Below are positions 19,265-30,179 of a stretch of 58,998 nt of DNA, one piece after another. The DNA lies in sequence record LT907986.1. One strand, 5' to 3'. Position 1 is the stretch's first letter, and each line of letters starts with the position of its first letter. Source of the stretch: Escherichia phage vB_Eco_SLUR25. The notes beneath the pieces were generated by a model. The model did not search any database. It saw only the letters and a program-made list of their open reading frames with translations, and was not told the origin of the DNA. The translations under genes and the position numbers were made by a program.

Positions 19265-19451
19265 CCCGGCCAGCGTGCAACATTAAGACAGGTTCTGCAA
19301 CTGCACGAACATAGACATACACGTTAGCAATCTTAACTTCGCCCGGCAGCTTACCGCGAAGCGAACATAATTTGCGACGACTAAGACCGAAGCGGTTTTC
19401 AATTTCTGATGTGGTTATGTATTTAAGATCAAATTCTTTTTGACAGTCCAT
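19236..19451 (-). CDS. small helix-turn-helix DNA-binding protein, first gene of leftward arm
   Basis: 71 aa; ITTSEIENRFGLSRRKLCSL is HTH-like; GGAGG RBS 5 nt before ATG at 19451. Confidence 0.5.
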   Translation of the reverse strand: MDCQKEFDLKYITTSEIENRFGLSRRKLCSLRGKLPGEVKIANVYVYVRAVAEPVLMLHAGRVVPEVGRGS

Positions 19452-20279
19452 ACCTACCTCCTAACAGCACTATACACAATCCATAGTAGGTCAGCCACAA
19501 TTATTCCACCTGAAGTTATAATGTGAGCGGATTGTTAATATATAACCACATGTGATGGAAAGTTTTGGGTAGGAATAGTTGGTGCTCCACAGTTTGCACA
19601 ATGTGACGGAAAGTTTTGTGAGTTTTGCAAAGTTTTGCGAAGTTTTGTGGTGCCACTGTTGCTAAAAACTTTAATAAAAACAATAAGTTGGTGCAGTAAG
19701 TTTTTGCGTTTTGGGGTAAAACGCATTTTTTACCCTAATACCCTAATCCCGACTGTTAGTAAAAAACGTATATAAATCAATAGGATAGATACTAAATGAA
19801 TAGTGAATGGAATGGGTAGAAATCCAAATGATGGAAGTGGAATAAATTATTCCTACTTGATGGAATAATGGAATCGGTACTCTGGAGCGCAAAAACCTAA
19901 AACTTTCAGTCAACAGACTAAAAACGGATAGAAACTAAAAGTTAATAAGTAATAGCATAAATATATATAAAATAAGGATTTATTAGTAATGTATATAGTA
20001 CCTATTGGTATTATTTGAATGTTTTTGGGTCTGCAACAAAAAGTCGCAAAACTCACAAAAAGTGAAAGATAACAATTCGTGACAAGATTGTTAATGGAAT
20101 AGGGTGTATGGATATACAGTATTATTCCAGATTCCGGAATAATTGGAATAATGGAATAAATTATTGAACTATTGTGATCGGAATGTATATCAAGCTATAA
20201 TGCGCTTAATCGCGGGATATTGGAGGAGGACTTTATTGCGCGGTTAACCGGACCAGTAGGAGGGCTGGCCCGGAGTAGT
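19452..20279. promoter_or_regulatory. 830-bp non-coding control region: phased GTTTTG repeats, TGGAATA palindromes, AT-rich core, 15-bp long-range inverted repeat (origin/early promoter region candidate)
   Basis: GTTTTG at 19561, 19612, 19621, 19631, 19642 (about 10-bp phasing); palindromes GGAATAAATTATTCC (19838..19852) and ATTCCGGAAT (20130..20139); TTTTGTGAGTTTTGC (19613..19627) inverted at 20045..20059; AT-rich 19925..20000. Confidence 0.5.
19705..19730 (+). terminator. terminator-like hairpin plus T-tract on plus strand inside control region
   Basis: GCGTTTT-GGGGT-AAAACGC followed by ATTTTTT. Confidence 0.4.
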
Positions 20280-20480
20280 TTAGAGCTGTACAGGTATGAA
20301 GTGGGCTAATGTGTCGTCGGACATGATACCCGACAATTTTTCGCTTACCCATTCGGACCAAATGCTATCCGGTTCCTGGCGGTGTACAAACCAGATTTCG
20401 GATGTGCCTTCTTTGCGCATCGGCTGCACTTCTACAAGAAACTTGTCCTGCATGAGGCGGGTGAAGCATACGCTGGTCAT
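20280..20480 (-). CDS. hypothetical protein
   Basis: 66 aa ORF; weak RBS. Confidence 0.35.
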   Translation of the reverse strand: MTSVCFTRLMQDKFLVEVQPMRKEGTSEIWFVHRQEPDSIWSEWVSEKLSGIMSDDTLAHFIPVQL

Positions 20481-20654
20481 TGGAACTGGCTTTTCGTGTT
20501 TATTGTAATAAGGAGTCAGTAATTTATTTCCGAAGTTAGCAACTTCATAAACAGTTCCTTTGCGAAGACCTCTGATGTCTGTGTAAGAGCGATAAATGTT
20601 TTCATGTTTACTCCTAGGGCTCCCGCAGAAGCCGTTGGTTGATGTGGTTATAGA

Positions 20655-21269
20655 TTATGCGTCCAGTCCGTTGTACTTGCGCCAGGCGTAGAACTGAATG
20701 GCAACCGTTGTTCCGTTGTAAGAAGGCATTGCAGCTTTCATTTCTTTCAGCTCCGGCGTGCGGCCCAGTTCGGCTAAAAGTTTGTCGCCCATTGCCCACA
20801 CTTCGGCGGTTTTTCCTTTCAGAGGCTTGCGAGCGCCATTTTTGAAATCACAGCGAGCAGCTTTTGCATCCTGTTTTGGTGCGGCAGCTTTTGGCTCTTC
20901 AATTTTGATTTCAGAAACCTGCGTGGCAGCTTTTGCATGTTTCATATCTTTCTCTTCCTCCTGCTCCAGGGCTTCGAGGCAGCTTTTGACGATTTCCGGA
21001 TTTACCATCGGGCGCAGTACCGAGACGCTGGCAGCTGGCGCGGCGGTCGGTGCCGGGACTTTCTGCTCCGGTTGTTGCGCTTTTTTATGGTCGCGCAGCA
21101 CCTGAAGCACTTCCTTCTCGACGATGTAAAAACCGATTTCGTCCTGATGGATAAGCTGTTCGTGTGCATCGCGTGCAACCTGGCCCCAGCGGGTCTTAAG
21201 GGCGCGGCGTGCATTCGTTTTCATGGTGTAACGCATTTTGTCCTGTTCGCGGTGAGTTACTTTAGACAT
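20655..21269 (-). CDS. hypothetical protein with Ala/Lys/Glu-rich middle and C-terminal domain shared with 4326..5129 product
   Basis: ATG at 21269 (MSKVTHREQ...) with AGGAG RBS; C-terminus NGARKP...W...LGRTP...TV.IQFYAWRKYNG. Confidence 0.5.
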   Translation of the reverse strand: MSKVTHREQDKMRYTMKTNARRALKTRWGQVARDAHEQLIHQDEIGFYIVEKEVLQVLRDHKKAQQPEQKVPAPTAAPAASVSVLRPMVNPEIVKSCLEALEQEEEKDMKHAKAATQVSEIKIEEPKAAAPKQDAKAARCDFKNGARKPLKGKTAEVWAMGDKLLAELGRTPELKEMKAAMPSYNGTTVAIQFYAWRKYNGLDA

Positions 21270-21660: not shown

Positions 21661-21828
21661 TCAACTATTTTCGCTTACATAATCCAGTGCGGCTTCGAGG
21701 AAATAGAATTCTTCCTGCTTATATAAGCTGATGGCCCACTCCAGCTGAGCGCGGGTAAGGTGGTGATATTTGTTATCGATGCAATAGCTGCGACCGAAGT
21801 ACATGATAGTGAAGTATGAGCTGGACAT
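21661..21828 (-). CDS. small hypothetical protein (55 aa)
   Basis: Manual translation MSSSYFTIMYFGRSYCIDNKYHHLTRAQLEWAISLYKQEEFYFLEAALDYVSENS with GGAGG RBS 8 nt upstream; replaces ORF-track 21675..21893 in another frame. Confidence 0.35.
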   Translation of the reverse strand: MSSSYFTIMYFGRSYCIDNKYHHLTRAQLEWAISLYKQEEFYFLEAALDYVSENS

Positions 21829-22228
21829 AACGCGCCTCCAAGTATGGTTAAGAAGTAGTACCGTGTTGCTATGGGTACATAATAGCGATGCATTGTGATA
21901 TTGAATAGGCCAAAAGTGCTATTTTAGAATCGTTTTGCATCTAGTGAAAATTATGCTTGCCCTACATGTTTAGCACCAATGCCCTAACTAATATCACACG
22001 ATCCGGTCTACGCGCTTGCACACATACATCTAAGGAGCGCCGGACCAGTTCCCACGGACTGGGAGTAGTACACCGGATCTACCAGGGGGATCCGGTTCCG
22101 CGTATGTGCAGAATCTACCAGGTAGGATCGGTACTATGTGGGCGCCGGAAATACCAGGGGCGCTCAACCGTCTCCGGTCGTCCTGTAAGCTGGTCCAAAA
22201 TATTTTTATAAAAAGATGCAAAAAGGTG

Positions 22229-22257
22229 TAGACATATGATCAATCTAACCATACTAT
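22229..22257 (+). promoter_or_regulatory. candidate sigma70-type promoter for the rightward arm
   Basis: TAGACA - 17 nt - TACTAT located about 50 nt upstream of first plus-strand gene. Confidence 0.3.
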
Positions 22258-22306
22258 ATACACATACCGCAACGGTACTACAAATTAACTTAAAGGGGTC
22301 TACATC

Positions 22307-22510
22307 ATGTCTATTCGTAACGTTATCTGTGTAATGGTTGCAAACAATAATTTCGGTTTCGTAGAAGGTGCAGAGTATAAAATGGATCTTAACACTCGTT
22401 GCATTATTAAAGGTGAAGAGGAATGGCGCGCAGTAGTAGAAGACCGCGGCGATATCTACATTTATAGTTCAGACACAATGAAAACTATTGCGGTCTTCGA
22501 ATTTAAATAA
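22307..22510 (+). CDS. hypothetical protein
   Basis: 67 aa ORF, first gene of rightward arm. Confidence 0.45.
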   Translation: MSIRNVICVMVANNNFGFVEGAEYKMDLNTRCIIKGEEEWRAVVEDRGDIYIYSSDTMKTIAVFEFK

Positions 22511-23196: not shown

Positions 23197-23762
23197 CGCA
23201 CACAGCAGCACCACAGCGAGCTAAAGCTCAAAGGTAATGGTAATGCATTACCAACACACAACGAGCACGCTGTACCCCACAAAGCGGCGCTAATTTCAAC
23301 ACTCACAGGCTGTACGTTAACTCGTACGGCCTGCTCTGCTATATGCACGCGATGTATATAGCCAGCTCACGATATACATTAATATAATAACGAATGAAAT
23401 AGATTCGTCTGGAAGAATAACAGATCTTGCAGTCACAGACCGGTCCAATGAGCCGACTCATAGACCCCACCTAGGATCATCAGGGTACTAATAATCACCC
23501 GAGGGCGCCTTATCCATCCTGATAGTAAGTCCTTGCCTAAATCTCACCTGTCGCATCCCTATCCACCTACATCCATGACCCCACCTACCTTCTTTTTGAA
23601 TATATTGCGCTCATCCTTTCTAAATATATGGATTTTGGTAGTAAATTCTGAGTCGTCAACGTATAATTCGTCTTGTAGCTGCTCCATAGCTACCATCTTT
23701 AAGCGGATGCAACCAATTTCTATCAATTCACACCTGTTTTTAGAGCATCAAGGAGGTATTAT

Positions 23763-28161: not shown

Positions 28162-28600
28162 TATGGCACTTCAACCTCGTGGTATTCGTAATAACAATCC
28201 AGGCAATATTCGCTGGGGTGATAATTGGCAGGGCTTAGTTCCTGCTGATAAGCGAACCGATAAATCTTTTGCTCAATTCACGCAACCGATTTACGGCATT
28301 CGTGCGCTAGCGAAAATCCTGACAAACTACACCAAACGTGAAGGCTTACCCAATGTGGGTAAGAAAAACATCGACACTGTACGTGAAATTATCGCTCGCT
28401 GGGCACCGCCTAACGAAAACGATACGGAAGCGTATATTCGCTCTGTTGCCAAAGCAATTGGTGTTCAACCTAACGATCCAATTAATGTCTTCGACAAGGC
28501 AATTATGTCAGGATTGGTGAAAGCAATCATTCGTCATGAAAATGGCATGATGCCCTATACCGACGACGTAATTAACCGCGCTATTGCAATGGTACTTTAA
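28162..28600 (+). CDS. putative endolysin (peptidoglycan hydrolase, class not determined)
   Basis: ATG 28162 with GGAGGA RBS; 146 aa; immediately upstream of holin and spanins; motif RNNNPGNIR. Confidence 0.45.
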
Positions 28601-29621: not shown

Positions 29622-30179
29622 ATGAACGGGGCAAGTCAAGAGCAATATGATCGTGACTGGACGAATTACATCCAGTATGCAAATAGCTTGTCCGCTGAAG
29701 AGATGGCAATACGTGACAAAGTTGTTGCTGAGTACATGTTCGACTACAATTGGACTAACGCTTGCATGAGATGCGGGTTCAATGCTATGTTTGCACAGGA
29801 GCTTGGCCAACGCTTTGCCACGGACTGTTATGTTCGATGGAAGCTCAAGGAGATTGAAAGATCCCGTGTTCAACGTACTTCTGAGCAAGCTAACATTGAA
29901 GCAGACCTTGAGCGTCAGCATATCATTGAAGCATTAAAACGTGAAGCTCATTATACAGGACCGGGATCTTCTCAAGCTGCTAGAGTCGCCGCATTGGGCA
30001 AGCTTGCACAAATTTATGATTTGGATGCTCCCAAGAAGGCTAAGATTGATGTTACTAACAGAGGCGGCGTAATGATAGTCCCTGCTGTAGCAAATATTGA
30101 CGAATGGGAAAAAACTGCATCCGAGTCTCAACAACGACTAGTTAAAGAGACTGAAGATGGAGCTAAACCGACAACCTGA
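29622..30179 (+). CDS. terminase small subunit
   Basis: 185 aa ORF immediately upstream of and overlapping large terminase; RBS AGGGGG. Confidence 0.5.
   Translation: MNGASQEQYDRDWTNYIQYANSLSAEEMAIRDKVVAEYMFDYNWTNACMRCGFNAMFAQELGQRFATDCYVRWKLKEIERSRVQRTSEQANIEADLERQHIIEALKREAHYTGPGSSQAARVAALGKLAQIYDLDAPKKAKIDVTNRGGVMIVPAVANIDEWEKTASESQQRLVKETEDGAKPTT

Follow-up and report, generated by a model that had tools for sequence, protein, structure and literature searches.

Between the last leftward and the first rightward gene of an Escherichia phage lies a GC-rich stretch with short direct repeats, for which a preliminary description made without database searches offered three readings: a packaging (pac) site, a structured RNA or a protein-binding site. 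Which of these, if any, does the locus serve? The phage belongs to the Queuovirinae, whose coliphages (9g, CAjan, Seurat, BASEL Bas19-25, DruSM1) serve as model systems in work on DNA hypermodification and in screens for anti-defence genes, and whose non-coding early region has so far been described only as two predicted promoters. No description of the repeat array treated here was found in the literature searched. The window (the whole 58,998-nt stretch of DNA that was analysed) is the complete 58,998-bp genome of vB_Eco_SLUR63 (LR025196.1; Seuratvirus, Queuovirinae) in rotated form, window position being record position minus 18,502.

Here, we describe in this region a cis element with a 6–9-nt core conserved across two genera, which lies with the first-expressed genes within a direct terminal repeat of ~3.4–3.7 kb (predicted for the window phage), apart from the packaging ends. 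We compared the island and its neighbourhood among phage records and metagenome loci and weighed what the array may do.

Results and discussion

A degenerate array between divergent promoters

The island is situated between the leftward ATG at 21828 and the rightward ATG at 22307, and it differs from its surroundings, as first described: the GC content is 0.61 over the 160 nt from 22037 to 22196 against 0.448 genome-wide, and 0.57–0.60 over 22000–22199 against 0.30–0.36 in the flanks. Its boundaries (Table 1) were set from island-less relatives, which read ...ACATATAAAGCTGCC joined directly to AAAATATTTTT; in the Seuratvirus alignment, the island starts directly after ...ACATATAAGG and ends directly before AAAATATTTTTATAAAAAG. 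The + strand of the region is G-rich, with GGA enriched (7 in 162 nt, i.e., 43 per kb versus 14 per kb in the genome). The Dcm/EcoRII site CCWGG occurs 87 times genome-wide and is not depleted.

Both direct repeats of the preliminary description share the exact 10-nt core ATCTACCAGG (22077–22086 and 22113–22122), which has no other site in the window even when one mismatch is allowed, and the partial third copy placed at about 22152 corresponds to TACCAGG at 22152–22158, the ACCAGG cores at 22081, 22117 and 22153 keeping an exact 36-nt period. The units share only ~16 nt of this period (a repeat family at 22073, 22109 and 22145 with 75–100% identity in the repeat search), and TRF reported no array. 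Taken by itself, the pair of 10-mers lacks genome-wide significance (2.18 expected with up to one mismatch; 67 of 100 shuffles reach two). The 19-nt unit consensus GYGCCGGANNKACCAGGKG has three matches, all in the island, against 0.31 expected (one shuffle in 100 reaches three), a score to be read in the knowledge that the consensus was built from the very units on which it was scored. Across the 59-kb genome, ACCAGG occurs seven times and CCTGGT four times, and the island is the sole cluster. Conservation among relatives is a stronger case for the repeats than these chance statistics.

Several short hairpins were also found, as announced (e.g., 22072–22079/22089–22096), and two of the three window cores sit in hairpin loops. 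GGACCAG (22042–22048) can pair with CTGGTCC (22190–22196), closing the island. The arm at 22000–22011 is the counterpart of a 5' hairpin in Nonagvirus (AUCCGG...GCCGGA), and Seuratvirus relatives show C or U opposite G in it.

Table 1 Elements of the divergent control region, in window coordinates
Feature	Position	Strand	Basis
Leftward promoter region (P_L)	21855–21950	−	Promoter scan; invariant block in relatives
−10-like TAATAT, 6 nt upstream of the 5' hairpin, with a poor −35; putative promoter	21989–21994	+	By eye
Upstream arm GATCCGGTCTAC, pairing with GTACACCGGATC (22068–22079)	22000–22011	+	Inverted-repeat search; MFE fold
GC-rich island: degenerate tandem array of three full units and one partial 5' unit, with hairpin-forming spacers	22037–22196	+	Composition; alignment to island-less relatives
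Partial unit 0 (GCGCCGGACCAG, without a full core)	22037–22062	+	Repeat search
Local hairpin CCAGTTCC-CAC-GGACTGG	22045–22062	+	Folds; sequence
Unit 1, core 22081–22086 in the 9-nt loop of ACCGGATC (22072–22079)/GATCCGGT (22089–22096)	22062–22097	+	Repeat and hairpin search
Unit 2, core 22117–22122 within the 11-bp palindrome CTACCAGGTAG (22115–22125)	22098–22133	+	Repeat search; unit alignment
Unit 3 GCGCCGGAAATACCAGGGGCGC, core 22153–22158 in a 12-nt loop, GCGCC (22142–22146)/GGCGC (22159–22163)	22134–22169	+	Repeat search; unit alignment
AT-rich block AAAATATTTTTATAAAAAG, then AGATGCAAAA	22197–22223	.	Inverted-repeat search; alignment of relatives
Rightward early promoter P_R, TAGACA-17-TACTAT	22229–22257	+	Promoter scan; kept in all relatives including Seurat

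The putative promoter upstream of the 5' hairpin was not reported by the promoter scan. Its analogue in 9g is CATAAT, and a BPROM promoter directed into the array is annotated in the record of that phage; a −10-like hexamer stands 6–7 nt upstream of the 5' hairpin in both Seuratvirus and Nonagvirus. No intrinsic terminator was predicted for the putative transcript. The island lies upstream of P_R, 32 nt separating its end from the −35 hexamer; the Nonagvirus counterpart of P_R (TAGACA-18-GATAGT) begins 12 nt past the third core in HdSG1.

Other symmetric elements occur in this control region. The segment 21855–21895 mirrors the P_R promoter and 5' UTR at 22241–22281 (41 nt, 71% complementary), both segments finishing in GCAAC(A)CGGTACTAC. 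AGATGCAAAA (22214–22223) is a perfect inverted copy of TTTTGCATCT (21933–21942), the pair bracketing the middle region, and a 28-nt imperfect inverted repeat links 21894–21921 with 21971–21998; both the 28-nt repeat and the 10-nt pair are kept in island-less relatives and may be operators. A near-perfect palindrome of ~20 bp (ACTATACTGGACAGTATAGT in 9g; HdSG1 locus L273, 893–912) lies ~50 nt downstream of the Nonagvirus array, where it overlaps TATAGT promoter-like hexamers, and it, too, may be an operator.

Coding potential

The description of the island as non-coding holds. The ORFs over it (84 aa on the + strand and 63 aa on the − strand) are conserved in frame and length in no relative: of the 84-aa ORF, 43 aa remain in the near-identical metagenome locus L025, GottfriedDienst also has a shortened version, and the unit spacings of 27, 35, 36 and 37 nt found in Seuratvirus break the reading frame. 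A protein-coding gene was rejected since no ORF is shared among relatives. CDSs for a "hypothetical protein" are annotated across the island in Dru_SM1 (L004, 1092–1468), CAjan (L003, 1688–1897) and KS_W4 (L011, 717–1001); being unconserved between relatives, they are probably spurious. The island ORFs of Dru_SM1 are pharokka-only calls, and the DruSM1 knockout study reported no phenotype for the small ORFs over the island.

Two proteins of that study were traced to their loci. The anti-AVAST "ORF83", which we had suspected of being the island on account of the locus tags _82 to _84 that overlap it, maps to NGRRMQZB_95, a SLOG/Smf-like protein. The 204-aa protein at 20655–21269 (− strand; phrog_22313) is encoded within the predicted terminal repeat and is orthologous to Dru_SM1 NGRRMQZB_79, which our mapping identifies as "ORF72", reported as anti-BREX and KfrA_N-like by HHpred; a Pfam search of the 204-aa protein gave no significant match.

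Variation and conservation of the array

Within Seuratvirus, the intergenic regions of 14 phage records and 12 metagenome loci were aligned. Four units are present in GottfriedDienst (Bas21), CAjan, Dru_SM1 and CSP1, three in the window phage (SLUR63 sequence) and Greed, two in metagenome locus L024, where the deletion runs precisely between cores, and one in SeppeHuegi, KS_W4 and ECP2304. Metagenome locus L025 (PPYE01311188.1) has two intact cores plus one inverted unit, SA126VB has a truncated island, and slur01, yong3, SA80RD and 7 of the 12 metagenome loci have no units; the BLAST coverage pattern suggests that ~9 more Seuratvirus phages lack them. The island is absent in ~12 of ~31 distinct Seuratvirus phages and is replaced in another seven (the Seurat group, in which an unrelated AT-rich filler of similar length takes its place) as well as in metagenome locus L019. 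The neighbouring genes are 96–98% identical between phages that carry the array and phages that lack it, and no candidate binder co-varies with it.

Around the core, the flanks and the order of the units are scrambled; ACCAGG itself does not vary in any of the 29 units (23 distinct), which come from 11 of the 12 Seuratvirus sequences examined, the exception being SA126VB with no intact core. Further positions are near-invariant (G at both −11 and −6, A at −4, C at +12), and half of the Seuratvirus units read ACCAGGG. In L025, otherwise near-identical to the window, the loop of the unit-1 hairpin is inverted (TACCAGGGG to CCCTGGTA) between the same stem arms, giving CCGGATC-CCCTGGTA-GATCCGG as the homologue of window 22072–22096; hairpin flips of this kind are known from chloroplast non-coding DNA. 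The inversion would destroy the motif on an RNA and keeps it on DNA.

In Nonagvirus, the corresponding locus was found with a neighbouring 82-aa protein as anchor. In 9g, the divergent region has three such units in direct orientation (GTGTGCCGGAAATACCAGGTAAC...) at spacings of 27 and 26 nt, and the array is placed and oriented as in Seuratvirus. It is kept in all 13 distinct Nonagvirus phages found except JenP1 and is also present in four IMG/VR contigs. Homology is clear between unit 1 of 9g and the last Seuratvirus unit (GTGTGCCGGAAATACCAGGnnnCGCGAGC), and among the window units it is unit 3 that comes closest to Nonagvirus unit 1; elsewhere, the intergenic regions of the two genera can barely be aligned. 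An alignment of eight Nonagvirus sequences has 20 variable columns out of 127, all of them outside the 27 core positions (ATACCAGGT three times), a distribution for which the chance of ~0.008 overstates independence, as sequences within groups are closely related.

Farther afield, the array was not found in the more distant Providencia phage PSTCR7 and Escherichia phage Pondi; BLAST against 5,426 E. coli genomes gave no match, and plasmids gave chance matches only. Scans of contig collections for three spaced copies of ACCAGGKG or TACCAGGKR returned mostly coding or collagen-like repeats, the Nonagvirus contigs being the only true relatives. Conservation, which the preliminary description named as a check, cuts both ways: the region is absent in many relatives, and the motif is nevertheless conserved across two genera. 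Judged from these comparisons, the array is non-essential: a dispensable, lineage-restricted component of the rightward immediate-early control region.

RNA structure and the favoured reading

The + strand of the array region folds better than dinucleotide shuffles in both genera (z from −0.9 to −4.6 in Seuratvirus and from −0.6 to −2.7 in Nonagvirus). Its z-score is lower than that of the − strand on average in all four sequence groups and in 19 of 20 individual sequences, a count that overstates independence given the close relatives within groups and that should be read with z-scores near −2 being modest. In the consensus structure of Nonagvirus, which was derived from the same alignment as was used to count its pairs, nine one-sided transitions keep pairing as G-U, two break it and one pair is compensatory; these substitutions are compatible only with the + strand, as the equivalents on the − strand would be A-C mismatches. 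All four variable pairs of Nonagvirus helix 1 (AUCCGG...GCCGGA) are kept, one of them by compensatory change.

The pairing context of the motif varies by unit type. The Nonagvirus structure predicts pairing of unit 1 with unit 3, unit 2 being apical, and in C-type units, the core is partly paired (CAGGGGCA with TGCCCCTG in CAjan). RNAalifold detected no covariation in the C-type islands, and a Nonagvirus covariance model run against Seuratvirus loci gave a non-significant best E-value of 6.2. Rfam 15 had no match at the gathering threshold anywhere in the window, E-value searches with the island and three relatives returned chance matches only (mir-203, E = 0.84; scaRNA, E = 0.13), and a tRNA/tmRNA search found none.

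Two of the readings first proposed, a structured RNA and a protein-binding site, both survive and are not mutually exclusive. We tentatively favour, at somewhat less than an even chance, an accessory multi-site recognition array carried on an early transcript of the + strand, because of the folding z-scores of that strand and the wobble-compatible substitutions. The array comprises three copies of the invariant ACCAGG core, each with a semi-conserved GYGCCGGA-NNN prefix and borne on GC-rich hairpins. We infer a transcript start at ~22000, at the 5' hairpin arm, so that the early + strand transcript would begin near 22000 with the 5' hairpin and would display ACCAGG, for the most part looped out, so as to offer a single sequence-specific factor several sites. 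The putative factor, whether protein or complementary RNA, could be titrated in trans or act in cis on the leader, and the number of units (0–4), shifting through inter-unit recombination, would set the dose. Transcription of the array, its start site and the existence and identity of a reader of the motif are the parts of this proposal that we infer.

A possible duplex-DNA operator

An operator-like array on duplex DNA is nearly as likely as the RNA reading. The ACCAGG units would then be sites for a phage or host regulator of the divergent immediate-early promoters, chiefly P_R, and the hairpins would be incidental to repeat turnover; we regard this as a serious possibility, if a doubtful one. 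It would fit the invariance of the core whatever its predicted pairing context, the palindromic form of the core in all Nonagvirus units (TACCAGGTA, TACCWGGTA) and in window unit 2, the place of the array directly upstream of P_R at the distances given above, and the inverted loop of L025, which keeps the duplex site. Copy-number variation and loss would likewise suit a modulatory operator. The spacings (26–27 bp in Nonagvirus and 27–37 bp in Seuratvirus) are, however, out of helical phase, and the sole invariant part of the unit, ACCAGG, is itself asymmetric; in half of the Seuratvirus units it is followed by G. An operator also leaves the + strand folding bias and the wobble-type substitutions unexplained, and the near-identical neighbouring genes of phages with and without the array offer no co-varying binder.

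Possible repeat turnover without function

That the island is a functionless, self-perpetuating palindrome and repeat tract between strong divergent promoters, which slippage, template switching and recombination would both maintain and rearrange and which could be lost at no cost, we consider unlikely. Absence from so many Seuratvirus phages and metagenome loci and from JenP1, replacement in the Seurat group and L019, the range from no units to four with deletions precisely between cores (L024), the hairpin-loop inversion of L025 and the small spurious ORFs of DruSM1, for which the knockout study reports no phenotype, all agree with it. It does not readily account for a core that stays invariant amid diverging spacers in two genera between which the intergenic sequence otherwise scarcely aligns, for the shared position and orientation of the array, or for predicted-stem substitutions that are biased towards preserving pairs.

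Less probable readings: replication origin and decoy RNA

Direct repeats beside an AT-rich stretch (22197–22215) at the point where the gene arms diverge, together with the G-rich + strand, also recall a replication origin or enhancer, in which the repeats would be iterons for an initiator such as a primase-helicase and replication might be primed by transcription through the G-rich strand. We rate this as very unlikely, given that half of the relatives apparently do without the island, that the genome has no second cluster of the motif and that the 36-bp spacing (26–27 bp in Nonagvirus) is out of helical phase.

A bolder variant of the RNA reading would make the array an immediate-early decoy RNA from the terminal repeat, presumably one of the earliest parts of the genome to be expressed after entry. 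UACCAGG(U) would titrate a host factor and, most specifically, mimic the ACCA loop of 4.5S RNA and sequester Ffh (SRP54); we consider this a long shot. The Nonagvirus core UACCAGGU is identical to nt 38–45 of the E. coli 4.5S (SRP) RNA, a segment that includes the ACCA asymmetric loop contacted by Ffh. Further words shared with 4.5S RNA are CGCGUGUGCCGG in CAjan and Greed (nt 78–89) and GGAAGCAGC in CSP1 (nt 57–65), and the longest matches are all on the sense strand, with scattered 7-mers only on the antisense strand. Scored by Smith-Waterman against 3,000 shuffles, the similarity is reached by 22 shuffles for CAjan (p ~0.007) and by 857 for SLUR63; the latter value is not significant, and the former does not stand up to the comparator having been chosen post hoc. 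The SRP family gave no match in the Rfam searches, and the fold of the island differs from that of 4.5S RNA.

Other resemblances, none with statistical support, are to Dcm/EcoRII CCWGG, FadR half-sites, REP elements and the complements of the 16S helix-24 strand and of the initiator-tRNA D-loop. The 36-nt period led us to consider a mimic of type III antitoxins (ToxI, CptI, TenpI and phage pseudo-ToxI, with near-identical tandem repeats of 34–45 nt), which was rejected for want of tandem identity and of any match in E. coli or plasmids.

Genome ends and packaging

The deposited record of the Seuratvirus phage ECP2304, on which the end positions for this genus rest, has an exact direct terminal repeat of 3,695 bp, whose boundaries align at 93–96% identity to window positions ~19840 and ~23511. 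The island is accordingly predicted to lie inside a direct terminal repeat of the window phage, 2.2 kb and 1.3 kb from its ends; in ECP2304 itself, it is ~1.1 kb from the nearer boundary. The record of the Nonagvirus HdSG1 has an exact direct terminal repeat of 3,363 bp with the right boundary at ...GGCGGCTC followed by TTAGATC. For 9g, a hot spot of read starts and ends was reported at nt 28,243, within the array-bearing intergenic region, and interpreted by the authors as a single left end (PMC4276943). The right repeat boundary of HdSG1 is exactly this hot-spot base, and the Nonagvirus array lies 224–282 nt inside the boundary. A search for the 9g terminus motif in the window found it absent. 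The terminal repeats of HdSG1 and ECP2304 span the early promoters of the divergent arms together with the small genes that come first on either arm. Seurat itself had earlier been inferred to use pac-headful packaging from the similarity of its TerL.

Around the boundaries projected from ECP2304, the window has two long non-coding regions. The first (19451–20654, 1.2 kb without an annotated gene) is dense in direct and inverted repeats (TGGAATAAATTATT twice, TGGAATAATGGAAT twice, the AAGTTTTG family and a 24-nt inverted pair), and the left boundary (~19840) falls on one of these repeats. The second (23197–23760, 0.56 kb) is C-skewed and contains the right boundary between 23511 and 23512 (...CGAGGGCGCCTT on the left, ATCCATCC on the right), flanked by copies of GACCCCACCTA at 23463 and 23577. 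These repeat-dense boundary regions are better candidates for end recognition than the island.

The pac site of the preliminary description does not survive this mapping, in which the published 9g reads and the relatives' records place the ends elsewhere than at the Seuratvirus island. TerS (window 29622–30179; phrog_5334) is 99–100% identical across Seuratvirus phages with zero to four units and with Seurat-type filler, the island being missing from about half of the close relatives, and the TerS of Nonagvirus is only ~46% identical to that of Seuratvirus, the motif being the same. Repeats serving as TerS binding sites, like lambda cosB or SPP1 pacL/pacR, would recall the cosN-cosB geometry in the Nonagvirus array near its right boundary; with the Seuratvirus island more than a kilobase from either end, the array present or absent independently of TerS and the boundary regions a better fit, we find this the least probable reading of all.

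What the array may offer

If the array is a true early RNA or operator with a specific reader, it provides a handle on the start of infection, and the natural variants with 0–4 units form a ready-made dose series. A decoy RNA, if true, would be a new kind of phage RNA for host takeover or anti-defence. If the tract is functionless, it illustrates how repeats and hairpins turn over between divergent promoters, with the natural inversion of a hairpin loop among the changes.

Comparison with known systems

Like lambda cosB (R1–R3) and SPP1 pacL/pacR, the Nonagvirus array consists of short direct repeats that begin a few hundred bp in from an end of the DNA. Unlike these, the array does not track TerS, is absent from many phages with the same terminase and lies 1.1–1.3 kb from the Seuratvirus end.

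The left terminal repeat of T5 with its injection-stop region and the ends of T7 with their short repeat arrays are non-coding repeat and palindrome regions. Like them, the island is non-coding, rich in repeats and hairpins, and placed inside a direct terminal repeat that it shares with the genes expressed first. It differs in having no sequence similarity to them and in standing in mid-repeat between promoters; the region 19450–20660 is the closer analogue.

With the iterons of the lambda ori and of plasmid or P4 origins, the array shares its three to four direct repeats, the partly palindromic core and the adjoining AT-rich block, but it is out of helical phase and dispensable, with no matching initiator identified and no second cluster.

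Compared with the sponge sRNAs CsrB and RsmZ, the array has an invariant ACCAGG rather than the A(N)GGA of CsrA, its promoter is putative and no terminator is predicted, Rfam gives no match and the motif is not always looped. What it has in common with them is a short invariant motif repeated in variable hairpins of a non-coding stretch with a varying copy number, and titration, as in those RNAs, would be the mode of action; the enrichment of GGA in the island is a further likeness.
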